10,492 bases of DNA from a virus, in IMG/VR virus record IMGVR_UViG_3300020029_000002, positions 1 to 10,492 of that record; one strand, 5' to 3'. Made by a program: the position numbers and the translations under genes. The notes below the pieces were generated by a model that had not been told where the DNA came from, made no database searches, and was given only the letters and a program-made list of their open reading frames with translations. Positions 1 through 10,492 of the stretch are shown here, one piece after another (position 1 is the stretch's first letter; every line of letters begins with the position of its first letter).

Positions 1-84
1 ACCATAGGGGACTATCTTCATTTCGGCCTTGCCATTCTTGGTAAAACCGACTTGAAAACCCTTAAGGGGGTGAAAACATGACAA
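1..84 (-). CDS. VP4: VP4/Rep N-terminal fragment (28 codons) cut by the window edge, redundant with 10372-10455
   Basis: TTG start at 84-82 preceded by GGAGGT. The sequence is identical to the first 84 nt of both full rep genes. It is present only because of the terminal redundancy. Confidence 0.6.
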   Translation of the reverse strand, partial: MSCFHPLKGFQVGFTKNGKAEMKIVPYG

Positions 85-121
85 CTAACTACCTCCAATC
101 GCTACACTCTTAGAGCCGCAA
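1..121. repeat. Terminal direct repeat (left copy), identical to 10372-10492, implying a circular or concatemeric record
   Basis: Comparing 1-121 with 10372-10492 base by base shows no differences. The same sequence also occurs at 5112-5232. Confidence 0.95.
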
Positions 122-153
122 GCTTTTCCGGACTCGGGGCTTGGGTGGTGTCA

Positions 154-190
154 GTGGGAACCAATATATCAAGATAGTATTGGTTCCCAC
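154..190. repeat. 37-nt inverted repeat in the VP2-rep intergenic region (perfect 13-bp arms, 11-nt spacer); candidate cis element such as an origin or recombination site
   Basis: GTGGGAACCAATA (154-166) and TATTGGTTCCCAC (178-190) are exact reverse complements. The spacer TATCAAGATAG is itself partly palindromic (TATC/GATA). No T-tract follows on either strand. The element is identical in unit B. Confidence 0.5.
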
Positions 191-221
191 ACCCTCCACC
201 TGACAGCCTCAGTCGTCAGCC

Positions 222-1202
222 TCAATGACGGCCAGTGCCACCACGAACGGCACCCTTGGCAGAATTCTTACCACCAGTGAAAAAATCACCAATATTTGCT
301 AACCAACCAGAAAGGCCACGATCAGACTGACTACCGGTAAACAAATCACCAAGAGCGCCGGCAGCTTCCCAAAAATTTTCTGGGTAAGCAGACTTAATAT
401 CAAACTGTTGGTCAAATCCAGCTTTTTGTAAATCTTTATTCACCTCGGCATTAAAGGCGGCAATCTCCTTTTGCGTCATAGACTGGATATCATAACCGTA
501 CTTTTGCGCAGCGGCATGAATAGAAGCAGCCACCTTCTGAGCAGCAGCAGACTGATCCGAAGCATACTTGGTACCAGCCAAATGAGCATCCGCGGTGTAC
601 TTCTGAGCCATAGCCTGGATATTAGCAGTATTAAGCTGAGTCTGAGCTTGGAGCTCGGAGGTATACTTGGACATAGCCGTATATTTATCCGCAATGGCCT
701 GATTAGACTGAGCAGAAACACGAGTCGATTCTAGGGAAAGAAGGGAAGAAAGCATAGAACCAAGAAGACCAGAGATAGCGGAATTAGCGCTAGTATCAAC
801 ATTACCCATAGCACCACTCGGAGCGCCCGAAGATGCCGTAGCGCCGGAAGTGACAGCAGCACCACTGCCGCCAGTAACACTAAGAACGGGATTAAGACCA
901 GCCGCAATTAAATCACGAACCTCTCGTTGATGGGCAGTAGAGGACATCCTCTCTTGCCAATCTCTATTTTTTTGGGCCTCTTGACTGTTGTACCGACGCA
1001 TGGTTTCGTACTGCGCTTCCTGCCACTTCCGGAGTTGTTCTGCCTGTTGAGCGCTGGCGGCAGTATTGCTGCCCGCAATACCTTGAAGGGCGCCAGTTAT
1101 AGATCCGGTAGTATTAAGTCGGTATTTATCAAGAGACCCAGGTCTTACAATAGCACCAGGAGAGGCAGTAGTCAAGGCCGACTTAGCCGAATTCATAGCC
1201 AT
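222..1202 (-). CDS. VP2: VP2 minor capsid / DNA pilot protein, unit A (326 aa)
   Basis: ATG at 1202 with GAGGTG 5 nt upstream; TGA at 224-222. It carries the central motif NRDWQERMSSTAHQREVRDLIAAGLNPVL typical of gokushovirus VP2, has an Ala/Gln/Ser-rich composition, and sits directly downstream of VP1. Confidence 0.85.
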   Translation of the reverse strand: MAMNSAKSALTTASPGAIVRPGSLDKYRLNTTGSITGALQGIAGSNTAASAQQAEQLRKWQEAQYETMRRYNSQEAQKNRDWQERMSSTAHQREVRDLIAAGLNPVLSVTGGSGAAVTSGATASSGAPSGAMGNVDTSANSAISGLLGSMLSSLLSLESTRVSAQSNQAIADKYTAMSKYTSELQAQTQLNTANIQAMAQKYTADAHLAGTKYASDQSAAAQKVAASIHAAAQKYGYDIQSMTQKEIAAFNAEVNKDLQKAGFDQQFDIKSAYPENFWEAAGALGDLFTGSQSDRGLSGWLANIGDFFTGGKNSAKGAVRGGTGRH

Positions 1203-1206
1203 AATC

Positions 1207-1341
1207 TCACCTCTTAGTGATGGTCGATAAGGCCAGGGATACTATACATAGGCATAGGCCGAGTAGCCTTACACTGAACGTAGAGGTCGGCAAACATTTG
1301 ATTAGACACAGAACTTGTAACAGCAAGTACGCGATCAACAT
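1207..1341 (-). CDS. Hypothetical overprinted ORF (44 aa, hydrophobic) in an alternative frame of the VP1 3' end, unit A; speculative
   Basis: ATG at 1341-1339 lies 8 nt downstream of GGGAGGA (1356-1350). The product is MLIAYLLLQVLCLIKCLPTSTFSVRLLGLCLCIVSLALSTITKR. The frame is also open, with the same SD and ATG, in unit B. Leu-rich sequence is common in alternative frames here, so confidence is low. Confidence 0.2.
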   Translation of the reverse strand: MLIAYLLLQVLCLIKCLPTSTFSVRLLGLCLCIVSLALSTITKR

Positions 1342-2902
1342 TAGTTTTATCCTCCCGAATCCAAGCATCAGAAAGCTTAGGGAGCTGGGTATACTCGTCG
1401 GCAAGATGCCAGACATCCAAAGAGGCCGGAGCCTTAGAACGCATCTCACCGGCAACACGGGACGGCTTGTAACGGTAATCGGCCCAGGCTTCCTGATAAC
1501 CAAAAACCTCATCATCCTGGGCGGTGCCCTGAGCGTAAATCTCCTTGTTAAGAATAGGCTGCTCACCAATATTGGCAAAGACCGGGAAATAGTAGTCCAG
1601 GCGGTCACGACGAGACCAGAAACGTTCAAGGCCCTGCTGATAGGTATGGTCATAGCGAGCAACCATAACGCCGATCACAAAGCCATGCTCAACAAAGGAT
1701 TTAATAAAGTCGCCGTGGACATCAGTAGTGACACTAAAGGCAGCCGTATCGCCAAGAGGAGTACCATCAGTCTGAGTAGCGGAGTTTTGAACGACCTGAT
1801 TAATATTAACGGGTATACGATTGCCGCCAAGATACTCAGGACGCTGGAGGCGAGCATCGGGAGAAGTAACGCCAAAATGAGACTTAAGGATTTCAATATA
1901 CCGAGTACCTCCTCTAGCGTCTTTCTCATAAAGTTTCTGAACCTGAAAGGCCATGCGCAACTGGTTGATAGTGGCCGCCGTCACAGAACCAGACTGAAGA
2001 GCCCACAGGTTGTCAAAGTACAACGTGCCATCACGAGAAGAACCGGAGGAAAAACGCACACCGGAAGAGATAGAAGTCAAATCAGCACTACTAGACGTAC
2101 CAAAATTCCAAGTTTGAATAACGGAGGAATAATCCACACTACCCGAATCTGCACCAGTTAACCAAGCAGACATAGGAGCCTTAAACTGAGAATGATCGAC
2201 ACGATCAGAAAGAGAAACAACGGGAAGGTTGCCACCCTGGCCGACAGGAATGGTTACATCAGGGCCTTTCTGCGGAGCGGGCAAAGCGGAAGTGAAGTAG
2301 TCATGGAACTTGGCGGCCTTGAAGGGCATACCGCCTTTGACAACATCGGTGATATAGTTGGTGCCATTGGAACCTGCAAGGGTAGCGTCATCCACGGGAA
2401 TATTGAGCGGGTCGGAAAGATTTTCATCACGAAACCACTCGTTCATAATGAGTGCATACGCCCTAAAGGGCAGCGCGTTAACAGAAAGATTGGCGACACC
2501 AGTAGGGATGCCCATGTAATCGGCAATCGAGCCAATAGACCAGCCGCCGGAAGGGGCAGACACCTGGGGGACGGAATACTCGGTGGTGGGAATCCAAGCG
2601 GACTGTGTATTCTCACCCATAAGCTCACGCCAATGCTGCCATACGATACGGTTGGGCACAAAATAAAAATAGGTGTCCAAATAAAGATTATCCATCATAG
2701 GAGTGAGCAGAGTTTGCAGGCGGGCAACCATAGAGGTCTTCAACTGAAAAGTATCGCCGGGAAGAACCTCATCCACATAGAAGGGGATAACGTCTCCAAC
2801 GTTGAAACTGAGTTTAACACTATGGTCACGCCGAAAAGTGCTACGAGCAATATCAAGGTTAGTAGGATTAAGAGCAAATCTTGTATTTTCATTACGAGAC
2901 AA
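1214..2902 (-). CDS. VP1: VP1 major capsid protein, unit A (562 aa)
   Basis: TTG start at 2902-2900 lies 7 nt after GGAGG (2914-2910). The N-terminus FALNPTNLDIARSTFRRDHSVKLSFNVGDVIPFYVDEVLPGDTF and the ~560 aa size match the microvirus F-like/VP1 capsid family. Confidence 0.95.
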   Translation of the reverse strand: MSRNENTRFALNPTNLDIARSTFRRDHSVKLSFNVGDVIPFYVDEVLPGDTFQLKTSMVARLQTLLTPMMDNLYLDTYFYFVPNRIVWQHWRELMGENTQSAWIPTTEYSVPQVSAPSGGWSIGSIADYMGIPTGVANLSVNALPFRAYALIMNEWFRDENLSDPLNIPVDDATLAGSNGTNYITDVVKGGMPFKAAKFHDYFTSALPAPQKGPDVTIPVGQGGNLPVVSLSDRVDHSQFKAPMSAWLTGADSGSVDYSSVIQTWNFGTSSSADLTSISSGVRFSSGSSRDGTLYFDNLWALQSGSVTAATINQLRMAFQVQKLYEKDARGGTRYIEILKSHFGVTSPDARLQRPEYLGGNRIPVNINQVVQNSATQTDGTPLGDTAAFSVTTDVHGDFIKSFVEHGFVIGVMVARYDHTYQQGLERFWSRRDRLDYYFPVFANIGEQPILNKEIYAQGTAQDDEVFGYQEAWADYRYKPSRVAGEMRSKAPASLDVWHLADEYTQLPKLSDAWIREDKTNVDRVLAVTSSVSNQMFADLYVQCKATRPMPMYSIPGLIDHH

Positions 2903-2937
2903 TTTAATACCTCCAGTCTGTAACGGTTGTTCAAAAG

Positions 2938-2960
2938 GAGGGGCCCACAGAGGGCCCCTC
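2938..2960 (-). terminator. GC-rich stem-loop (9-bp stem GAGGGGCCC/GGGCCCCTC, 5-nt loop) followed on the coding strand by CTTTTG; possible leaky intrinsic terminator or attenuator between VP3 and VP1
   Basis: The arms are exact complements at 2938-2946 and 2952-2960. The T-tract on the minus strand is only 4 nt. The stem is conserved in unit B with a different loop. Confidence 0.35.
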
Positions 2961-2974
2961 GTTCTCTGTTGTTC

Positions 2975-2995
2975 ACACGGCCAGGGCGGCCGTGT
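2975..2995. repeat. Second GC-rich stem-loop in the VP3-VP1 spacer (8-bp stem ACACGGCC/GGCCGTGT, 5-nt loop)
   Basis: Exact inverted repeat at 2975-2982 and 2988-2995, identical in unit B (8091-8111). Its function is unknown. Confidence 0.5.
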
Positions 2996-3046
2996 ATGCC
3001 TTGACCAGAGCCTCAGCGACTCAAGCCAATGTCAGGAATATGAAAT

Positions 3047-3559
3047 TTAACCAGCGGGTGAGGCTGGCGCGGGGTCTGTCTCACCTCCTTTCGGGCCCTG
3101 TGAGGCCGCTGGCGGCTCACCAGCGGGATTTTGGGAGGCGGGTGGTGTAACCATACCCATAGCCTCTAACCAGCTCTCAGAGCCTGCCTGAGCAAGCCAG
3201 GCATGGAAAGATTGGCCGAACTTCTCGCGAGTTTCGAGGGGCAGGCTCATAAACGTCTGCTCGGCCTCTATCATGTGATTGAGCAACCCAGCATAGGTCT
3301 GAGGCATCTGGGAGAAATCACCAAACATACCTTGCACCTTTTGCAGGGCGGCAGTATCACCAGCGTTAAACCTGTCCATGATTTTATGGAGATCAACAGA
3401 ATCTTTGTGACTCTGGATAAAGGCATAGAGGTCCTCTTTACCGCTCTCCTTGAGGGTCATAACGCCGAAGCGGTCGAACTCGGGGGAATAGAGAATCTTT
3501 TCGCCGGAGCCGGGCTCAGAGCAAAAATGCTCCTGATCACGATGCCAAGTCTGGAACAT
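3047..3559 (-). CDS. VP3: VP3 internal scaffolding protein, unit A (170 aa)
   Basis: ATG at 3559 lies 7 nt after GGAGG and shares one base with the VP5 stop (TGATG). Motifs LYSPEFD, LYAFIQSHKDSVD, GDFSQMPQTYAGLLN and FMSLPLETREKF resemble gokushovirus VP3. The C-terminal tail is Pro/Ala-rich. Confidence 0.8.
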   Translation of the reverse strand: MFQTWHRDQEHFCSEPGSGEKILYSPEFDRFGVMTLKESGKEDLYAFIQSHKDSVDLHKIMDRFNAGDTAALQKVQGMFGDFSQMPQTYAGLLNHMIEAEQTFMSLPLETREKFGQSFHAWLAQAGSESWLEAMGMVTPPASQNPAGEPPAASQGPKGGETDPAPASPAG

Positions 3560-3828
3560 CAGACATCCTCCTTCTGCTGCATAGAGCGAAGAACCTCCGC
3601 GCCGTCGGAAATGAGCTCGTGGAGCTGGGCCGGAATGAGAACGCCTTTGTCGGAATCAAACTCACCAATCCGGAAAAGCTGGAAATCAGAAGCGTGGGTA
3701 AAGAGCACGCCTTTGGATTCCATAATGGCGTTAGCAAAATTGCGAGCGGCGATATAGTCGTTCTGCTCAGTGTTGAGACCGAAGAAACCGGAACGCAGGT
3801 CACGAATGGCGTAAACGTTAAGCATCAT
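3559..3828 (-). CDS. VP5: VP5-like conserved gokushovirus nonstructural protein, unit A (89 aa from the SD-supported ATG)
   Basis: The ORF track opens at TTG 3861, but GGAGG lies inside that extension, 9 nt upstream of the ATG ATG at 3828. The product MMLNVYAIRD...FQLFRIGEFDSDKGVL resembles the small conserved gokushovirus protein encoded between VP4 and VP3. Confidence 0.7.
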   Translation of the reverse strand: MMLNVYAIRDLRSGFFGLNTEQNDYIAARNFANAIMESKGVLFTHASDFQLFRIGEFDSDKGVLIPAQLHELISDGAEVLRSMQQKEDV

Positions 3829-4003
3829 TTTTATCATCCTCCAAAAAACCAGAAATTTCAATCAAACGGATTTGAAGCTCCAAGGCCAGGAACTCATAAA
3901 AATCGAGCTCCATGTTGAGGGAACGCCAAACTTTGGCGGCCAGCTCGTAACAGTCGGCATCGAGATTCAGCCGGACACAGACGATAGCACGTTCGTCATT
4001 CAC
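3818..4003 (-). CDS. Small acidic hypothetical protein, unit A (61 aa)
   Basis: GTG start at 4003 lies 8 nt after GGAGGT and overlaps the upstream stop (GTGA). The 3' end overlaps the VP5 start by 11 nt. Compared with unit B, most differences over the shared ~50 codons are synonymous (about 9 synonymous and 3 replacement codon changes by eye). Confidence 0.55.
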   Translation of the reverse strand: MNDERAIVCVRLNLDADCYELAAKVWRSLNMELDFYEFLALELQIRLIEISGFLEDDKNDA

Positions 4004-4113
4004 ATCCTGATACCTCCGCGATAGATTTTAGGGTTCACGTTGATACGCTTGGAATTGACGGCGGTGTGGCGAAAAACCTGCCTATCCTGAGAGCGCTTCA
4101 TTTTTCGAGCCAT
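4000..4113 (-). CDS. Small highly basic protein (37 aa), a J/VP8-like DNA-binding or packaging protein, unit A
   Basis: Too short for the ORF track. ATG at 4113-4111 lies 2 nt after the rep stop and 8 nt after GGGAG. The product is MARKMKRSQDRQVFRHTAVNSKRINVNPKIYRGGIRM. It is Arg/Lys-rich with the C-terminal RGGIR(M/L) ending seen in gokushovirus small basic proteins. Confidence 0.7.
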   Translation of the reverse strand: MARKMKRSQDRQVFRHTAVNSKRINVNPKIYRGGIRM

Positions 4114-4115
4114 GA

Positions 4116-5195
4116 TTACAACTCCCTTCTCAAATTTTTTATACGGTTATGGAGCACGCGCTCCTGGGTCTCGAGGATTTCTTCGTAGGTCATGGTGGAC
4201 TGGGCCAGCTTGGCCTTCTTGCCTTCCTCGGCAAAGTGCTTGCGCTTGGCCTTAATCTCAGCCATAAGCTCCGGTTGTTCCAGGTCAAACAGCTTATCGA
4301 AATACTTGGGAGGGCGAATCTTGCGACCGCCATCAGGAGTAGAAATAGAGATTGTGTCATACTCCATGCACTCGGGATGGTCTTCGTACCACCGGCGGCC
4401 AATACCAGGGCGGCGAGACATGTCGACATACTCGGGCTGGATGTTAAACGTCTGGTAGACATCAGCTTCTGGGCCACAAGCCTTTTTCATAACGTACCGG
4501 GCAACGTAAGCACAGGTTTCCCAGTTAACCTGACCAACCAGGACATAGCCGATAGGCTTCCGGATGCAAGGGGTGTCATACTCCCCTTTCTGTTCTACCA
4601 CACTCCAGGCCTTTTGTAAAGCCTCAGAATAGTAATATCGATATCCAACGTCGCCGCGCTGGATATCTTGAACAGGAACAAGGTCATGCAAGTGGAGACC
4701 AAAAACTATTGCATGGTAGTGAGGGCGGAAGGTGGTAGAGCCATACTCACCGCACATGAAATACCGAATATGGTCATCCGGGAAGGCTTTCCGAAGGCGC
4801 TTCCAGAAAAGCTGCATATGACGCTTCTCCAAACTAAGAGACTGCATCGCCTCTCCGGTCTCCGGATCAGCATACCAATGACGAGGGACATGCTCTTCAT
4901 CATAAGTCAAAGTCAGGAAGTAAGCGGAATCGTGATATTCGAGTTCCATCATACAGCGGTTAGCCCATTCACGAGAGCGGGCTATGCGGCAGCCTTCACA
5001 CTTGCCGCAAGGAATTTCAACCCAGTCAAGCCAAGTCTTTTCCGCATAGGCAGAAATCTCAGGAACATCGGACGTACAGATGCGACCTTTTCGCAATTCT
5101 AGGTGATGAACACCATAGGGGACTATCTTCATTTCGGCCTTGCCATTCTTGGTAAAACCGACTTGAAAACCCTTAAGGGGGTGAAAACATGACAA
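4116..5195 (-). CDS. VP4: VP4 replication initiation protein (HUH rolling-circle endonuclease), unit A (359 aa)
   Basis: TTG start at 5195 lies 7 nt after GGAGG. RCR motifs are present: FLTLTY (I), RPHYHAIVFG (II, HUH) and YVARYVMKK (III, catalytic Tyr). The N-terminal MSCFHP is typical of microvirus Rep. Confidence 0.95.
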   Translation of the reverse strand: MSCFHPLKGFQVGFTKNGKAEMKIVPYGVHHLELRKGRICTSDVPEISAYAEKTWLDWVEIPCGKCEGCRIARSREWANRCMMELEYHDSAYFLTLTYDEEHVPRHWYADPETGEAMQSLSLEKRHMQLFWKRLRKAFPDDHIRYFMCGEYGSTTFRPHYHAIVFGLHLHDLVPVQDIQRGDVGYRYYYSEALQKAWSVVEQKGEYDTPCIRKPIGYVLVGQVNWETCAYVARYVMKKACGPEADVYQTFNIQPEYVDMSRRPGIGRRWYEDHPECMEYDTISISTPDGGRKIRPPKYFDKLFDLEQPELMAEIKAKRKHFAEEGKKAKLAQSTMTYEEILETQERVLHNRIKNLRREL

Positions 5196-5301
5196 CTAAC
5201 TACCTCCAATCGCTACACTCTTAGAGCCGCAAGCTTTTCCGGACTCGGGGCTTGGGTGGTGTCAGTGGGAACCAATATATCAAGATAGTATTGGTTCCCA
5301 C
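5104..5301. repeat. 198-nt block exactly identical to 10364-10492 plus 122-190 (the junction block of both units)
   Basis: Read by eye with no mismatches. It covers rep codons 1-30, the rep SD and leader, and the whole palindrome. The flanks diverge immediately on both sides. Confidence 0.9.
5265..5301. repeat. 37-nt inverted repeat, unit B copy (identical to 154-190)
   Basis: The arms and spacer are the same as in unit A. The last base of the right arm (5301) is also the last base of the 198-nt identity block. Confidence 0.5.
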
Positions 5302-5327
5302 GACCCTCCAATTTTCAGCCTCAGACG

Positions 5328-6353
5328 TTAACGTTTTTTGCTGGCAGCCTTACCAGACCAAGTATCACCAACAGCACCGGCAATCATCTTAGCATAATCA
5401 AAAATATTATCACCCCAAGGGAGGCCAAGCTGATCAAGAGCTTCGCGACCAGACGCAAGTTCAGGACCAAAAGCCTGCCAAGCATTAGATGGAAAACTTT
5501 CCCTTATATCAAAATCGTGTTTAAAACCAGCTTCTTGCAAATCTTTATTCACAGAAGCGTTAAAAGCAGCAATCTCCTTTTGCGTCATAGACTGGATATC
5601 ATAACCGTACTTTTGCGCAGCGGCATGAATAGAAGCAGCCACCTTCTGAGCAGCAGCAGACTGATCAGAAGCATACTTGGTACCAGCCAAATGAGCATCC
5701 GCGGTGTACTTCTGAGCCATAGCCTGGATGTTAGCAGTATTAAGTTGGGTCTGAGCTTGCAGACCAGCAATATCCTTGGAAGTCTTAGAGGAAAGCTCGG
5801 AAGTATATTTACTCATAGCCGTATACTTATCCGCAATAGCCTGATTAGATTGAGCAGATACACGAGTAGCCTCTAAGGAAAGAAAGGAAGAAAGCAGAGT
5901 ACCAAGAAGACCAGAGATAGCGGAATTAGCGCTAGTATCAACATTACCCATAGCACCACTCGGAGCGCTAGAAGATGCCGAAGCGCCGGAAGTGACAGCA
6001 GCACCGCTGCCGCCAGTAACACTAAGAACGGGATTAAGACCAGCCGCAATTAAATCACGTACCTCTCTCTGATGGGCGGTAGAGCTCATACGCTCCTGCC
6101 AATCACGATTTTTTTGGGCTTCCTCAGAATTGTATTTTCTTGCAATCTGGGATTGCTGCTCCTGCCAGGCCCGCAGCTCCTCCGCCTGTTTGGCGGAGGC
6201 TGCGGAATTCTGGCCGGCGATACCTTGGAGAGCACCAACATAAGAGCCGAACTTATTAGCAGCAGAAGAAGGGGGGGTAGACTGCTGCTTCGCGGAAAGT
6301 TGCTGCTTCGCCTGGGTATATTTAGAGCCAAAAGCCCATTCGCCGAGCGTCAT
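5328..6353 (-). CDS. VP2: VP2 minor capsid / DNA pilot protein, unit B (341 aa)
   Basis: ATG at 6353 lies 9 nt after GGAGG; TAA at 5330-5328. The central region is near-identical to unit A VP2. The N-terminal ~35 aa and C-terminal ~60 aa are unrelated, and there is an 11-aa insertion (SSKTSKDIAGL). Confidence 0.85.
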   Translation of the reverse strand: MTLGEWAFGSKYTQAKQQLSAKQQSTPPSSAANKFGSYVGALQGIAGQNSAASAKQAEELRAWQEQQSQIARKYNSEEAQKNRDWQERMSSTAHQREVRDLIAAGLNPVLSVTGGSGAAVTSGASASSSAPSGAMGNVDTSANSAISGLLGTLLSSFLSLEATRVSAQSNQAIADKYTAMSKYTSELSSKTSKDIAGLQAQTQLNTANIQAMAQKYTADAHLAGTKYASDQSAAAQKVAASIHAAAQKYGYDIQSMTQKEIAAFNASVNKDLQEAGFKHDFDIRESFPSNAWQAFGPELASGREALDQLGLPWGDNIFDYAKMIAGAVGDTWSGKAASKKR

Positions 6354-6357
6354 TATA

Positions 6358-6495
6358 TCATACCTCCTTAGTGGTGGTCAATAAGACCAGGGATAGAATA
6401 CACAGGCATAGGCCGAGTAGCCTTACACTGGATGTAGAGGTCGGCAAACATTTGGTTAGACACAGAACTTGTAACAGCAAGTACGCGATCAACAT
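6358..6495 (-). CDS. Hypothetical overprinted ORF (45 aa, hydrophobic), unit B counterpart of 1207-1341; speculative
   Basis: The GGGAGGA SD and ATG (6495-6493) are the same as in unit A. The product is MLIAYLLLQVLCLTKCLPTSTSSVRLLGLCLCILSLVLLTTTKEV. Confidence 0.2.
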   Translation of the reverse strand: MLIAYLLLQVLCLTKCLPTSTSSVRLLGLCLCILSLVLLTTTKEV

Positions 6496-8020
6496 TAGTT
6501 TTATCCTCCCGAATCCAAGCATCAGAAAGCTTAGGGAGCTGGGTATACTCGTCGGCAAGATGCCAGACATCCAAAGAGGCCGGAGCCTTAGAGCGCATTT
6601 CACCAGCAACACGAGACGGCTTGTAACGGTAGTCGGCCCAGGCTTCTTGGTAGCCAAAAACTTCATTGTCCTGGGCAGTGCCCTGGGCGTAAATCTCCTT
6701 ATTCAGGATAGGCTGCTCACCAATATTGGCGAAAACCGGGAAATAGTAGTCCAAACGGTCACGACGGGACCAAAAACGCTCAAGTCCCTGCTGGTAAGTA
6801 TGGTCATAACGGGCAACCATAATGCCGATCACAAAACCATGCTCCACAAAAGACTTAATAAAATCGCCATGCACATCAGTTGTGACAGAGAAAGCAGCAG
6901 TATCACCAAGAGGAGTACCTTCGGCTTGAGTAGAAGAACTCTGAACGACCTGGTTAATATTGACAGGGATACGATTGCCGCCAAGATACTCAGGGCGCTG
7001 AAGACGAGCGTCAGGACTGGTAACACCGAAGTGAGACTTAAGAATTTCAATGTAACGAGTACCTCCTCTTGCATCCTTTTCATAAAGCTTTTGCACCTGA
7101 AAAGCCATGCGGAGCTGATTGATAGTAGCAGAGGAAACAGAACCGTCATTGATGGCCCAAAGATTAGTAGGAACAAAGGACGAGACATTACCAGGAAGAG
7201 TACTTACATGAGCATTAAGAGCACCAGGTTCAGGAGAAGTACTTTCATTAACGCAAACCACATTATAAGGCATTTCATCAAAAGTCCTAATTTTAAGAGG
7301 AAAAGAAGACAAACCAGAACTTTCGCTAAGAGTTCGAACAGGATAATTCGCACCACCAGACACAGGGATGGTCACATCAGGGCCTTTCTGCGGAGCAGGC
7401 AGCGCGGAAGTGAAGTAGTCGTGGAACTTGGCGGCCTTAAAGGGCATGCCGCCTTTAACAACATCGGTGATATAATTGGTGCCATTGGAACCTGCAAGGG
7501 TAGCATCATCCACAGGGATATTGAGCGGATCGGAAAGGTTTTCGTCACGAAACCACTCGTTCATAATAAGGGCGTAGGCACGGAAGGGGAGGGCGTTAAC
7601 AGAGAGGTTAGCAACACCAGTAGGGATGCCCATATAGTCGGCAATGGAACCAATAGACCAGCCACCAGAGGGCGCAGTTACCTGAGGGACAGAGTACTCA
7701 GTCTTGGGAATCCAAGCGGACTGTGTATTCTCACCCATCAGCTCACGCCAATGCTGCCAGACAATACGGTTAGGCACGAAGTAAAAATAAGTGTCCAGGT
7801 AAAGATTGTCCATCATGGGAGTGAGCAGCGTTTGGAGGCGGGCCACCATAGAAGTCTTCAACTGGAAAGTGTCTCCAGGTAAAACTTCATCGACATAGAA
7901 GGGGATAACGTCTCCGACGTTGAAACTGAGTTTAACGCTATGGTCACGCCGAAAAGTACTACGAGCAATGTCAAGGTTAGTAGGATTAAGAGCAAATCTT
8001 GTATTTTCATTACGAGACAA
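6368..8020 (-). CDS. VP1: VP1 major capsid protein, unit B (550 aa from the conserved TTG)
   Basis: The ORF track extends to GTG 8092. The TTG at 8020-8018 behind GGAGGT, homologous to the unit A start, is the supported start. The protein is nearly identical to unit A except for residues ~221-296. Confidence 0.93.
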   Translation of the reverse strand: MSRNENTRFALNPTNLDIARSTFRRDHSVKLSFNVGDVIPFYVDEVLPGDTFQLKTSMVARLQTLLTPMMDNLYLDTYFYFVPNRIVWQHWRELMGENTQSAWIPKTEYSVPQVTAPSGGWSIGSIADYMGIPTGVANLSVNALPFRAYALIMNEWFRDENLSDPLNIPVDDATLAGSNGTNYITDVVKGGMPFKAAKFHDYFTSALPAPQKGPDVTIPVSGGANYPVRTLSESSGLSSFPLKIRTFDEMPYNVVCVNESTSPEPGALNAHVSTLPGNVSSFVPTNLWAINDGSVSSATINQLRMAFQVQKLYEKDARGGTRYIEILKSHFGVTSPDARLQRPEYLGGNRIPVNINQVVQSSSTQAEGTPLGDTAAFSVTTDVHGDFIKSFVEHGFVIGIMVARYDHTYQQGLERFWSRRDRLDYYFPVFANIGEQPILNKEIYAQGTAQDNEVFGYQEAWADYRYKPSRVAGEMRSKAPASLDVWHLADEYTQLPKLSDAWIREDKTNVDRVLAVTSSVSNQMFADLYIQCKATRPMPVYSIPGLIDHH

Positions 8021-8055
8021 GTTAATACCTCCAGTCTGTAACGGTTGTTCAAAAG

Positions 8056-8076
8056 GAGGGGCCCATGGGGCCCCTC
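8056..8076 (-). terminator. GC-rich stem-loop, unit B (same 9-bp stem, 3-nt loop) followed by CTTTTG on the coding strand; possible leaky terminator
   Basis: GAGGGGCCC (8056-8064) and GGGCCCCTC (8068-8076). The loop is ATG here and ACAGA in unit A. Confidence 0.35.
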
Positions 8077-8090
8077 GCTCTCTGTTGTTC

Positions 8091-8111
8091 ACACGGCCAG
8101 GGCGGCCGTGT
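8091..8111. repeat. Second GC-rich stem-loop, unit B (ACACGGCC/GGCCGTGT)
   Basis: Identical to 2975-2995. Confidence 0.5.
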
Positions 8112-8154
8112 AGGCTGCTTTAATCAGATTCAGCCAATGTCAGGAATATGAAAT

Positions 8155-8676
8155 TTAACCAGCGGGTGAGGCTGGGGCGGGGGTAGATACATCACCTCCT
8201 TCACTGGAATGGCCCTGGGAGGCCGTAGGAGGCTCACCAGCAGGTTTTTCAGTGGTGGGGGGTGTAACCATACCCATAGACTCTAACCAGCTCTCAGAGC
8301 CTGCTTGAGCGAGCCAAGCATGAAAGGATTGGCCGAACTTCTCTCGGGTCTCAAGGGGTAAGCTCATAAACGTCTGCTCGGCCTCTATCATGTGATTGAG
8401 CAGCCCGGCATAGGTCTGGGGCATCTGGCTGAAATCACCAAACATGCCTTGCACCTTTTGCAGAACGGCAGTATCACCAGCATTGAACCTGTCCATAATT
8501 TTATGGAGGTCAACGGAATCTTTGTGGCTCTGGATGAAGGCATAGAGGTCTTCTTTGCCGCTCTCCTTGAGGGTCATAACGCCGAAGCGGTCGAACTCGG
8601 GGGAATAGAGAATCTTTTCGCCGGAGCCGGGCTCAGAGCAAAAATGCTCCTGATCGCGGTGCCAAGTCTGGAACAT
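8155..8676 (-). CDS. VP3: VP3 internal scaffolding protein, unit B (173 aa)
   Basis: It has the same start context as unit A. The body is near-identical, and the Pro/Ala-rich C-terminal tail is diverged and 3 aa longer. Confidence 0.8.
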   Translation of the reverse strand: MFQTWHRDQEHFCSEPGSGEKILYSPEFDRFGVMTLKESGKEDLYAFIQSHKDSVDLHKIMDRFNAGDTAVLQKVQGMFGDFSQMPQTYAGLLNHMIEAEQTFMSLPLETREKFGQSFHAWLAQAGSESWLESMGMVTPPTTEKPAGEPPTASQGHSSEGGDVSTPAPASPAG

Positions 8677-8945
8677 CAGACATCCTCCTTCTGCTGCATA
8701 GAGCGAAGAACCTCCGCGCCGTCGGAAATGAGCTCGTGGAGCTGGGCCGGAATGAGAACGCCTTTGTCAGAATCGAACTCGCCAATACGGAAAAGCTGAA
8801 AATCGGAAGCATGGGTAAAAAGCACGCCTTTGGATTCCATAATGGCGTTAGCAAAATTGCGAGCGGCGATATAGTCGTTCTGCTCAGTGTTGAGACCGAA
8901 GAAACCAGAACGCAGGTCACGAATGGCGTAAACGTTAAGCATCAT
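8676..8945 (-). CDS. VP5: VP5-like conserved nonstructural protein, unit B (89 aa)
   Basis: The protein is 100 percent identical to unit A, although I count 9 nucleotide substitutions, all synonymous. Confidence 0.7.
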   Translation of the reverse strand: MMLNVYAIRDLRSGFFGLNTEQNDYIAARNFANAIMESKGVLFTHASDFQLFRIGEFDSDKGVLIPAQLHELISDGAEVLRSMQQKEDV

Positions 8946-9007
8946 TTTTATCATCCTCCAAAAAACCAGAAATTTCAATCAAACGGATTTGAAGCTCCAA
9001 GGCCATC

Positions 9008-9098
9008 AACTGGTAAAAATAAACTAGTAAAAATCGAGGACACAAACTGGTAAAAATAAACTAGTAAAAATCGAGGCCAGAAACTAGTAAAAGTCGAG
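9008..9098. repeat. AT-rich tandem repeat: two 37-nt periods (32 nt exact, 9008-9039 = 9045-9076) plus a partial third copy; present only in unit B
   Basis: The sub-motif AACT(G/A)GTAAAA(A/G)T occurs five times, starting at 9008, 9022, 9045, 9059 and 9082. A related AACTCATAAAAAT occurs at 9151 and at 3891 in unit A. Confidence 0.85.
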
Positions 9099-9263
9099 CT
9101 CCGTATAACCAGAAAGTTCAATTAAGCGGATTTGCAACTCCAGGGCAAGGAACTCATAAAAATCAAGCTCCATATCGAGAGAGCGCCAAACTTTGGCGGC
9201 CAGCTCGTAACAGTCGGCATCGAGATTCAACCGGACACAGACGGTAGCACGTTCGTCATTCAC
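9084..9263 (-). CDS. Small acidic hypothetical protein, unit B (59 aa, C-terminus remodelled by the repeat insertion)
   Basis: One residue below the shortest ORF in the track. It has the same GTG start and GGAGG as unit A. The product is MNDERATVCVRLNLDADCYELAAKVWRSLDMELDFYEFLALELQIRLIELSGYTELDFY, and the TAG stop (9086-9084) lies inside the first repeat copy. Confidence 0.5.
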   Translation of the reverse strand: MNDERATVCVRLNLDADCYELAAKVWRSLDMELDFYEFLALELQIRLIELSGYTELDFY

Positions 9264-9373
9264 ATCCTGATGCCTCCGCGATAGATTTTGGGATTCACAT
9301 TGATTCGCTTGGAATTGACAGCGGTGTGGCGGAAGACTTGCCTATCCTGGGAACGCTTCATACGTCGAGCCAT
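9260..9373 (-). CDS. Small highly basic J/VP8-like protein, unit B (37 aa)
   Basis: The product MARRMKRSQDRQVFRHTAVNSKRINVNPKIYRGGIRM has one replacement (K4R) against unit A plus several synonymous changes. Confidence 0.7.
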   Translation of the reverse strand: MARRMKRSQDRQVFRHTAVNSKRINVNPKIYRGGIRM

Positions 9374-9375
9374 AA

Positions 9376-10455
9376 TTACAACTCCCTTCTCAAATTTTTT
9401 ATACGATTATGGAGCACGCGCTCCTGGGTCTCGAGGATTTCTTCGTAGGTCATAGTGGACTGGGCCAGCTTGGCCTTCTTGCCTTCCTCGGCAAAGTGCT
9501 TGCGCTTGGCCTTAATCTCAGCCATAAGCTCCGGTTGTTCCAGGTCAAACAGCTTATCGAAATACTTAGGGGGACGAATCTTACGGCCACCATCTGGGGT
9601 GGAGATAGAGATAGTATCATACTCCATGCACTCGGGATGGTCTTCGTACCACCGGCGGCCAATACCAGGGCGGCGAGACATGTCGACATACTCGGGCTGG
9701 ATGTTAAACGTCTGGTAGGCATCGGCCTCGGGGCCAGAGGCTTTCTTGAGGACGTACCGGGCGACGTAAGCGCAGGTTTCCCAGTTAACTTGACCAACCA
9801 AAACATAGCCAATAGGCTTCCGGACGCAAGGGGTGTCATACGCCCCTTTCTGTTCTACCACAGACCAAGCCCGTTGTAAAGACTCCGAGTAAAAATACTG
9901 ATATCCGACATCGCCACGCCGGATATCCTGCACAGGCATCAAGTCATGCAAGTGGAGTCCAAAAACTATTGCATGGTAATGAGGCCGGAAGGTGGTGGAG
10001 CCATACTCACCGCACATAAAATACCGAATATGGTCATCCGGGAAGGCTTTCCGAAGACGCTTCCAGAAAAGCTGCATGTGACGCTTCTCCAAACTAAGTG
10101 ACTGCATCGCCTCTCCGGTCTCCGGATCAGCATACCAATGGCGGGGTACATGTTCTTCATCATAGGTCAAGGTCAAGAAGTAGGCGGAATCGTGATATTC
10201 GAGTTCCATCATACAGCGGTTAGCCCAATCACGAGAGCGGGCTATACGGCAGCCTTCACACTTGCCACAGGGGATTTCAACCCAATCAAGCCAGGTCTTT
10301 TCAGCGTAGGCGGAAATCTCGGGGACATCGGACGTACAAATGCGACCCTTGCGCAGCTCCAAATGATGAACACCATAGGGGACTATCTTCATTTCGGCCT
10401 TGCCATTCTTGGTAAAACCGACTTGAAAACCCTTAAGGGGGTGAAAACATGACAA
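9376..10455 (-). CDS. VP4: VP4 replication initiation protein (HUH Rep), unit B (359 aa)
   Basis: It has the same TTG start, SD and motifs I-III as unit A. Twelve of 359 residues differ from unit A, while many more nucleotide differences are synonymous. Confidence 0.95.
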   Translation of the reverse strand: MSCFHPLKGFQVGFTKNGKAEMKIVPYGVHHLELRKGRICTSDVPEISAYAEKTWLDWVEIPCGKCEGCRIARSRDWANRCMMELEYHDSAYFLTLTYDEEHVPRHWYADPETGEAMQSLSLEKRHMQLFWKRLRKAFPDDHIRYFMCGEYGSTTFRPHYHAIVFGLHLHDLMPVQDIRRGDVGYQYFYSESLQRAWSVVEQKGAYDTPCVRKPIGYVLVGQVNWETCAYVARYVLKKASGPEADAYQTFNIQPEYVDMSRRPGIGRRWYEDHPECMEYDTISISTPDGGRKIRPPKYFDKLFDLEQPELMAEIKAKRKHFAEEGKKAKLAQSTMTYEEILETQERVLHNRIKNLRREL

Positions 10456-10492
10456 CTAACTACCTCCAATCGCTACACTCTTAGAGCCGCAA
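10372..10492. repeat. Terminal direct repeat (right copy), identical to 1-121
   Basis: Exact match to the first 121 nt of the window. Confidence 0.95.

Follow-up and report, generated by a model that had tools for sequence, protein, structure and literature searches.

Why do two major capsid proteins encoded on one viral contig agree almost residue for residue, except for one segment in which they can hardly be aligned? The question is raised by the window, i.e., the whole stretch of 10,492 nucleotides analyzed here (positions 1 to 10,492 of IMG/VR record IMGVR_UViG_3300020029_000002), which consists of two complete gokushovirus units placed head to tail plus a terminal repeat. Its layout is as follows.

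1-5111: unit A.
5112-10371: unit B.
10364-10371 plus 1-190 (read as a circle): one copy of R1, an exact repeat of 198 nt between A and B.
5104-5301: second copy of R1, at the A/B junction, covering the 5' end of VP4 and the region upstream.
1-121, the same as 10372-10492: terminal repeat of 121 nt, inside R1.
1302-1438, the same as 6456-6592: R2, an exact repeat of 137 nt within the 3' part of VP1.

The two units are 85.4% identical in DNA over the aligned columns of their whole length. Each 5-kb unit encodes VP1 to VP5 and small ORFs only; besides the capsid protein, the gokushovirus set of VP2 (pilot), VP3 (internal scaffold), VP4 (Rep) and VP5 is present, and the Pfam domains Chlamy_scaf, Phage_ORF5 and REP_ORF2-G2P were matched in both units. 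No spike or external scaffold genes were found in the window, and further long sense-strand ORFs are absent from it. R2 offers an assembler a second possible point at which to switch strains. Neither an exact VP1 A product nor a second copy of the contig is on record. The features of VP1 needed for the comparison are listed below.

1214-2902, minus strand: VP1 major capsid protein of unit A, 562 aa from a TTG start, with matches to Phage_F, 8DES and 9CGM.
6368-8020, minus strand: VP1 major capsid protein of unit B, 550 aa from the TTG at 8020.
2012-2242, minus strand: EF4 protrusion loop of type A, the unalignable core (aa 221-297 of VP1 A).
7166-7360, minus strand: EF4 protrusion loop of type B, the unalignable core (aa 221-285 of VP1 B).
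1976-2011, minus strand: descending stem and base of the loop in unit A (aa 298-309), comprising the conserved anchor NLWA and then LQSGSVTA, a semi-variable stretch of eight residues.

The open frame of VP1 B reaches further upstream, to a GTG at 8092. In the preliminary description, the divergent segments had been placed at 1979-2242 (aa 221-308 of VP1 A) and 7133-7360 (aa 221-296 of VP1 B, counted from the TTG at 8020) with a difference of 12 aa in length, and both the coordinates and the divergence hold, since only 21 of the 89 columns that align aa 221-309 of A with aa 221-297 of B are identical and 12 are gaps. Outside aa 221-309, 463 of 473 residues are the same in the protein alignment, with two differences in aa 1-220 and eight in aa 310-562. 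Chance cannot account for so strong a contrast between loop and flanks. At the DNA level, the flanks are 88.9% identical on the N-terminal side and 86.7% on the C-terminal side, with pS of 0.45-0.46, dS of about 0.7 and dN of 0.009-0.037. Hence, the near-identity of the flanks that had been described is true of the protein and not of the DNA (87-89%), and a loop replaced in an otherwise identical backbone does not fit flanks at this dS; A and B are two diverged strains rather than one backbone with a fresh swap. The divergence between the two loops lies near, and slightly above, the near-neutral expectation at a dS of about 0.7. Near-neutral evolution of the loop over such a distance nearly explains it, and very ancient alleles are therefore not strictly required.

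The position of the segment within the capsid protein can be read from relatives of known structure. Phage_F (PF02305) covers residues 18-558 of VP1 A in Pfam (E 1.2e-168), and homology over the full length links VP1 A to the capsid proteins of phiEC6098 (8DES, E 1e-152) and SpV4 (9CGM, E ~3e-137). In SpV4, the EF4 loop spans aa 218-306, including an unmodelled protrusion at aa 230-291, and helix alphaB spans aa 300-321 (PMC11281519), while 88 aa of the protrusion of phiEC6098 are unbuilt (8DES). VP1 A aa 222-321 aligns to SpV4 aa 225-310; aa 221-297 corresponds approximately to SpV4 aa 224-287, inside the EF4 loop, and NLWA (aa 298-301) aligns to SpV4 aa 288-291. The match to the 8DES profile splits at VP1 A 221/300 and leaves 8DES 218-314 unaligned. 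By these alignments, the variable block occupies the EF4 loop position just before helix alphaB, which supports the original proposal that it is the VP1 insertion loop building the threefold protrusion. As in SpV4 (9CGM), phiEC6098 (8DES) and the Chlamydia phages, it lies between the conserved PAPQKG motif and the alphaB helix (ATINQLRMAFQ), and it resembles the EF4 loops of those phages in length (65-90 aa) and in its partly conserved stems around an unalignable head. By likeness to SpV4, phiEC6098 and Ebor, the loop may trimerise into the protrusion on the threefold axis and bind the host. AlphaFold2 prediction of VP1 A from a shallow alignment of 32 close relatives (at least 85% identity) gave a pLDDT of 26 and a pTM of 0.15, too low for the model to be used. 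No Pfam domain was found within loop A or loop B.

To date, at least six discrete loop types have been found on cores that are 95-99% identical in protein, in a comparison set of about 30 related genomes and 120 protein clusters with small samples of 3 to 13 genomes per loop type. The 120 protein clusters fall into six loop clusters with bimodal loop identities (25-45% and 50-100%), and the loop exists as discrete allele classes, not as a continuum. Types A to F were all seen in IMG/VR genomes (L001-L027 of the set); nearest to loop B are L017, L020 and L027 (70-72% loop identity) together with the prophage L119. Peptide scans of IMG/VR for loops A and B returned genomes of the same clade only, and neither loop was met on a distant core.

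The clade is temperate, with a short att core, and the proteins flanking its prophages are exact Flavonifractor plautii proteins. For instance, the right flanks of L114 (type A) and L119 (type B) agree at 98.7% over 2.9 kb, and those of L004 (A) and L116 (C) at 98.9% over 3 kb; a flank is also common to L016 (D) and L022 (E). Phages of types A and B are found as single prophages at the same locus of F. plautii. Since phages of different types form lysogens in one host species, host range at the species level is not set by the loop; the occurrence of different alleles in one species and at one site argues that the loop tracks strain-level variation of the host surface or some other frequency-dependent pressure. 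The A and B loops may differ in receptor or antigenic specificity. F. plautii also offers a concrete, culturable host for loop-swap work.

We favour, with a probability of about 0.75, the reading that the segment is the EF4 loop, that it forms a recombining multi-allelic locus in the gokushoviruses of F. plautii, and that the contig is a join of two strains. Three copies of the loop would build each threefold 'mushroom' protrusion, a probable host-attachment structure, and A and B, about 85% identical in DNA, would be two strains of a temperate population in this host that recombines freely. The loop exists there as at least six discrete, mutually unalignable allelic types, with the jelly-roll core on both sides under very strong purifying selection. 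Homologous recombination in the conserved flanks would carry loop types between backgrounds, and because it does the moving, the loop would act as a cassette without dedicated machinery. Within a type, the loop head evolves near neutrally with local excesses of amino-acid changes. The loop may bind the host, and selection could come from variation of host surface receptors or from other frequency-dependent pressure.

As for the contig itself, an assembler most likely joined two co-occurring strains through the 198-nt identical stretch. The contig ends and the internal junction fall in R1, the longest exact repeat between A and B, and, as in reported concatenated microvirus MAGs, there are two head-to-tail units and a terminal repeat. 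The reported concatenations are 'often identical' copies, whereas the units here are 85% identical and are joined via the exact repeat. Alternatively, the contig might be a real heterodimer: a cointegrate replicative form could have arisen through a single crossover in R1, or a tandem double prophage could have left the host chromosome as one circle. The pilot protein genes bear on this possibility.

222-1202, minus strand: VP2 pilot protein of unit A; its N-terminus is of type N1, its C-terminus of the rare type 'g', and it lacks an internal insert.
5328-6353, minus strand: VP2 pilot protein of unit B, with N-terminal type N2, the insert SSKTSKDIAG and C-terminal type 'a'.

The two VP2 proteins are 68% identical overall, with variable modules at the N-terminus, internally and at the C-terminus. 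Loop A goes with N1 and loop B with N2 in the window, the same linkage as is seen in the population, which would suit a real heterodimer. A single reciprocal crossover in R1 would yield exactly the order R1-a-R1-b, tandem integration is conceivable in a temperate clade with a short att core, and a distant relative (L090) is an exact tandem dimer in a 36-kb bacterial MAG contig. Nevertheless, the terminal repeat is contained in the sole long exact repeat between A and B, as it would be after a figure-of-eight walk through an assembly graph. At 10.4 kb, the contig is larger than every microvirus genome in a survey of 4,077, in which the maximum was 8.3 kb and concatenated genomes were reported from MAG data sets. 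Phages like A and like B are found elsewhere as monomers or single prophages, and none of ten prophage contigs holds a tandem hetero-prophage, all being single. By inference, co-expression of two VP1 proteins whose cores are identical would also give mixed capsids with threefold knobs made of mutually unalignable loops. A heterodimer is hence unlikely, and the earlier suggestion of one replicon with two capsid specificities is doubtful. A shade less likely still is the stronger claim that the circle of 10,371 nt is a genuine heterodimer of A and B, caught as a physical intermediate in the shuffling of VP1 loops and VP2 modules in F. plautii; if true, it would be a single replicon encoding two surface specificities. 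Two-unit microvirus contigs that appear "circular" can be cross-strain joins and call for caution.

The preferred reading, a recombining loop locus, depends on how the loop and its flanks are associated among relatives. An Fst-like measure of differentiation by loop type peaks in the loop at 0.65-0.76. Towards the C-terminus it reaches about 0 over 25-50 codons and stays there from residue 334 on; towards the N-terminus the decay is slower, with values of 0.17-0.31 for residues 125-199 and of 0.2-0.3 for residues 150-199. Differentiation by type is restricted to the loop and fades on either side of it. The distances in the N- and C-terminal flanks are correlated with a rho of only 0.21, and nearest neighbours are often of another loop type. 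The same allele also occurs on diverged backgrounds, and the same host and site are used by phages with different alleles. For instance, the loops of L014 and L015 have a divergence of 0.000 with adjoining flanks 10.5% and 12.4% apart, and for type D, pS is 0.012 in the loop vs. 0.24 in the flanks. A four-gamete/PHI-like test gave p=0.002 in both flanks; synonymous sites are half saturated (pS 0.3-0.45), so that four-gamete incompatibility is raised by recurrent mutation. Along A or B, the best relative changes with each 250-nt window, often at 98-100% identity, and comparison of the nearest relatives across R1 and the att core revealed pervasive mosaicism; since most relatives are metagenome-assembled contigs, strain chimeras could mimic part of this mosaic and of the linkage decay.

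Taken to its extreme, the latter point would make the cassette shuffling largely an artefact of strain-chimeric assemblies, with true haplotypes that are clonal. The window itself is probably a cross-strain join, the many exact runs of at least 100 nt common to different strains are switch points for an assembler, and stretches of A and B that match their relatives at 100% alternate with others at about 90%. The same loop types, however, turn up again where data set and assembler are independent (IMG/VR, ENA MEGAHIT and SPAdes, Logan), also in prophages within long host contigs, different types sit at one host locus, and the identical loops of L014 and L015 come from different data sets. We rate a general artefact as improbable.

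Still less probable is a purely clonal history, in which the loop diverged in place under diversifying selection together with its own backbone and without exchange. At a flank dS of about 0.7, near-neutral evolution alone could render a loop almost unalignable, with no import needed, and no external donor was found. Flank distances also remain weakly, though significantly, associated with loop type (p=0.0005 and p=0.006). Yet differentiation is lost only tens of codons from the loop, identical or near-identical loops lie on flanks 10-15% diverged, and the closest flank neighbour of VP1 A, at 4.3% divergence, bears a B loop. Loop identities that are bimodal and not graded do not fit such a history either. 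The high dN/dS within loop types, which would favour it, was found alongside these signs of exchange: within-type dN/dS is 0.57-0.79 in the loop vs. 0.02-0.05 in the flanks, and sub-windows of the loop head reach pN/pS of 0.9-1.8 with stems at about 0.2. Of the two processes proposed at the outset, modular exchange or diversifying selection, both are supported, the former by linkage decay and by shared loops on diverged flanks, the latter by the elevated ratios within types.

A dedicated device, whether a diversity-generating retroelement or a site-specific invertible (shufflon) cassette, has only the localised hypervariability in its favour and can be dismissed for these units: neither a reverse transcriptase nor a recombinase is encoded in the 5-kb units, the loop has no template-repeat copy to pair with a variable repeat, inverted repeats of at least 30 nt are absent, the loop is flanked by chance-level repeats of 10-12 nt only, and variable sites fall on all bases without adenine bias (A 15, C 14, G 14, T 11).

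That the protrusion loop of gokushovirus VP1 is hypervariable is textbook knowledge, and the finding itself is therefore ordinary; its added value lies at the population level, in a multi-allelic, recombining "serotype" locus within one abundant human-gut phage species. Unlike the cross-genus comparisons of EF4 loops, the variation described here is that of a single species-level population, whose cores are 95-99% identical in protein, and unlike in known EF4 systems, it takes the form of discrete alleles decoupled from their flanks by recombination. The host, F. plautii, is a Gram-positive-type relative of Clostridium and not Spiroplasma, Chlamydia or E. coli. Exchange of tail-fibre tips and the variable regions of parvovirus capsids offer a parallel, in that a divergent surface module on a conserved scaffold is swapped by homologous recombination and kept polymorphic; the present loop differs in being part of the one jelly-roll capsid protein that an ssDNA phage of 5 kb possesses, and the likeness is one of analogy only. 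Kirchberger and colleagues reportedly described, in PNAS in 2021, a hypervariable region in the DNA pilot protein VP2 of temperate microviruses, for which a role in superinfection exclusion is said to have been proposed. Both are short hypervariable modules in otherwise conserved genomes of temperate microviruses, but the VP1 loop is in another protein, is external and has a different proposed role. In the microvirus Ebor ('Tainavirinae'), trimeric protrusions on the threefold axes are built by the same VP1 loop, and cryo-ET revealed that they make contact with the surface of the host prior to opening of the penton. An attachment role may be extended to the present clade by analogy only, as Ebor belongs to a different subfamily, infects the Gram-negative Rhodobacter and uses LPS.

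In a set of 5.8 billion proteins, searches with the loops by themselves gave essentially nothing, the word prefilter having let one candidate through. In addition, loop A was searched against 1.8 billion representative proteins, where the sole match from the clade was one fragment of the same clade, with no distant donor. Marginal matches to Big_2 and PKD repeat proteins (E 1e-4 and 6e-4) were also obtained, a hint that loop A may be Ig-like in nature.

The window consists of two gokushovirus genomes joined head-to-tail, followed by a 121-nt terminal repeat (1-121 = 10372-10492). The genes of both units are all carried on the minus strand, with Pfam matches to Phage_F, Chlamy_scaf, Phage_ORF5 and REP_ORF2-G2P. 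The layout is as follows:

1-5111, unit A
5112-10371, unit B
222-1202 (A) and 5328-6353 (B), minus strand, VP2
1214-2902 (A) and 6368-8020 (B), minus strand, VP1
3047-3559 (A) and 8155-8676 (B), minus strand, VP3
3559-3861 (A) and 8676-8978 (B), minus strand, VP5
4116-5195 (A) and 9376-10455 (B), minus strand, VP4
4568-4588 and 9828-9848, minus strand, att core AAGGGG(A/C)GTATGAC(A/G)CCCCTT(GCA), inside VP4

The units are 85.4% identical in DNA (whole units, aligned columns), and protein identity is 100% for VP5, 96.7% for VP4, 91% for VP3, 86% for VP1 and 68% for VP2. An insertion of ~135 nt in unit B (9005-9140), absent from unit A (position ~3887), bears a tandem repeat of two 37-nt copies (9000-9073; AGG.CA.CAACTGGTAAAAATAAACTAGTAAAAATCG) and is also found at 99-100% identity in the related genomes L002 and L016 (relatives carry L numbers; L001-L027 are from IMG/VR). 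Antisense open frames opposite VP1 (1217-2161, plus strand, 314 aa; 6371-7882, plus strand, 503 aa) are unequal in length between the units and probably just reflect codon usage.

The preliminary description had reported a replaced VP1 segment at 1979-2242 in unit A and 7133-7360 in unit B, and both its coordinates and its divergence were confirmed by the VP1 alignment. In this block (A aa 221-309 vs B aa 221-297) 21/89 columns match, with 12 aa fewer in B; the wholly unalignable part covers 2012-2242 (A) and 7166-7360 (B), with a conserved NLWA motif at its end. The flanks on either side, described as nearly identical, are so as protein, differing at 2 residues over aa 1-220 and at 8 over aa 310-562, but not as DNA (88.9% and 86.7% identical; pS 0.45-0.46, dS ~0.7, dN 0.009-0.037). 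This divergence indicates that A and B are well-diverged strains rather than a single backbone with a recent swap. Purifying selection on the capsid core of both is very strong (dN/dS 0.01-0.05), and a near-neutral stretch at dS ~0.7 would by itself be nearly unalignable.

Along its entire length, VP1 of unit A matched two solved gokushovirus capsid proteins (phiEC6098, 8DES, E 1e-152; SpV4, 9CGM, E 3e-137), with residues 222-321 aligned to SpV4 225-310 and NLWA (298-301) to SpV4 288-291. In SpV4, the EF4 loop (aa 218-306) builds the threefold 'mushroom' protrusion, with stems at aa 220-239 and 287-300, a mobile unmodelled part at aa 230-291 and, at the base, helix alphaB (aa 300-321) surrounding the threefold axis; in phiEC6098, 88 residues of the protrusion were unbuilt (PMC11281519). 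The match of the clade profile to 8DES was split into two segments (13-221 and 300-554), leaving 8DES 218-314 unaligned. Both alignments place the variable block in the protrusion, as previously proposed, which by homology identifies the block with the EF4 loop, already known to be hypervariable. Partial conservation at the two ends (G.N.PV..L and NLWA) marks the stems. A trimeric knob would likewise be expected in the present virus. Equivalent protrusions of phage Ebor touch the host surface, and by analogy the loop may play a role in attachment. An AlphaFold2 model of VP1 A, built from close-relative alignment rows only, was of unusable quality (pLDDT 26). Pfam identified no domain in loop A. 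Marginal matches of the loop, with E 1e-4 and 6e-4, fall on the repeats of a pair of large bacterial proteins that contain Big_2-like and PKD-like domains; its TWNFGTSSS (within 2012-2242) is similar to the PKD motif WxFGDG. A second, small variable patch of VP1 (1766-1786 and 6920-6940; A aa 373-379), NSATQTD in A and SSSTQAE in B, lies outside EF4, presumably in another surface loop.

IMG/VR contributes ~27 related genomes whose cores share 95-99% protein identity, and thousands more relatives are present in the protein database. Their loops fall into discrete types, A (including unit A), B (including unit B), C, D, E and F. Likewise, 120 protein clusters resolved into six loop clusters, with bimodal pairwise loop identity (25-45% between types, 50-100% within). 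Between-type identity inside the clade (0.27-0.44) is not above that to loops on ~75%-identical cores, and neither loop A nor loop B was ever found on a distant core in IMG/VR peptide scans and protein database searches. One protein cluster, P0024 (VP1 92% identical to that of unit A; 366 members; 1.9-kb contig), carries the label 'major capsid protein [Staphylococcus aureus]', which probably reflects contaminated S. aureus assemblies and no true host link.

How far the flanks diverge in DNA depends little on loop type: 0.083 within and 0.099 between types for the N-terminal flank, 0.090 and 0.103 for the C-terminal flank, vs 0.167 and 0.551 for the loop. Distance matrices of the two flanks correlate with a rho of only 0.21, and nearest flank neighbours are often of another loop type; the nearest N-terminal flank to that of unit A belongs to a type B genome (L017, 4.3% divergence). 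An Fst-like measure by loop type was 0.2-0.3 at residues 150-199, 0.65-0.76 at 225-308, 0.27 at 309-333 and ~0 from 334 on. L014 and L015 have identical loops (divergence 0.000) between adjoining 210-nt flanks diverging by 10.5% and 12.4%; for L014 and L024 the values are 2.6%, 13.8% and 15.2%, and in type D loop pS is 0.012 vs 0.24 and 0.115 in the flanks. A four-gamete/PHI-like test gave p=0.002 in each flank, and successive 250-nt windows of either unit each have a different best relative, often at 98-100% identity. Neither repeats nor recombinase signals were found around the loop, and the variation is not adenine-specific, indicating that ordinary homologous recombination, acting in the conserved sequence on either side, accounts for the exchange. 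Tracts of 250-500 nt were 100% identical to differing IMG/VR contigs (for instance 1001-1250, L012; 4001-4250, L007; 7612-8111, L027; 9362-9611, L016), which points to pervasive recombination or else chimeric assemblies.

Within types, dN/dS is 0.57-0.79 in the loop vs 0.02-0.05 in the flanks, and in 12-codon windows pN/pS rises to 0.9-1.8 in the loop head vs ~0.2 in the stems. The closest relative of VP1 A (L083, 97% identity) differs at 15 residues, 11 of them in aa 248-288. Modular exchange and diversifying selection, earlier offered as alternatives, thus both operate: recombination shuffles old, discrete loop alleles, and the loop head keeps diversifying. VP2 has variable modules of its own: both termini vary (N-terminal types N1/N2/N3, C-terminal types a/b/g), and an insert of 10 aa, SSKTSKDIAG, can be present internally. 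N2 with the insert accompanies loop B in 6/7 genomes, though the intervening VP1 region is almost without linkage; C-terminal types are freely shuffled, and the 'g' of unit A is rare.

Several relatives are prophages inside bacterial contigs, and three flanking proteins (host flanks of L081, L004 and L114, with L116 and L119) exactly match Flavonifractor plautii or Flavonifractor proteins, which identifies F. plautii as the host of this abundant gut clade. The loops of units A and B represent a pair of alleles at one recombining, multi-allelic locus carried by F. plautii phages. Between L114 (type A, near unit A) and L119 (type B, loop almost identical to that of unit B), right-flank identity is 98.7% across 2.9 kb; between L004 (A) and L116 (C) it is 98.9% across 3 kb, and L016 (D) and L022 (E) likewise have a flank in common. 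Different types in the same host flank indicate that loop type does not set species-level host range; strain-level surface variation, or another pressure that depends on frequency, probably drives loop diversity. Isolates of Oscillibacter sp. PC13 and Muriventricola aceti carry more distantly related prophages.

The prophage state splits VP4, with ~aa 204-359 at the left end and aa 1 to ~210 at the right (L004, L012, L016, L022, L081, L104, L105, L113, L114, L116, L118-L120); no description of such integration was found in the literature searched. The att core (6-bp inverted arms, 9-nt loop; hairpin stability not unusual, z -1.4) also occurs at the host site, directly upstream of an SLH-domain gene. 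It does not resemble dif, and no integrase gene is present in the phage. The prophage adjoins this S-layer-type gene, with Wzy/glycosyltransferase genes on the other side in some strains.

The suggestion that one replicon carries two capsid specificities fared less well, as the two-unit contig is probably an assembly artefact (probability roughly 0.8-0.85). The terminal repeat lies inside a 198-nt exact A/B stretch (5104-5301; 10364-10371 plus 1-190), a layout expected when two strains occur together and the assembler walks their figure-of-eight graph. One homologous crossover would give an identical layout in a real A+B heterodimer, but this is improbable: at 10.4 kb the contig is longer than any of the 4,077 curated microvirus genomes of one survey (maximum 8.3 kb), whose authors noted that concatenations occur in MAG sets; A-like and B-like genomes occur as monomers and single prophages; and no tandem hetero-prophage was seen in the prophage contigs examined. 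Moreover, two VP1s with identical cores would be expected to co-assemble, mixing unalignable loops in each threefold knob. Against a background of ~88% identity, A and B have nine exact runs in common, 97-198 nt long; besides the 198-nt stretch, one of 137 nt falls in VP1. In L090, a Clostridia MAG contig of 36 kb, a distant microvirus (VP1 53% identity) occupies ~6250-16700 as a tandem dimer whose copies are 100% identical (period 5173 nt), and the sequence to either side of it is unique.
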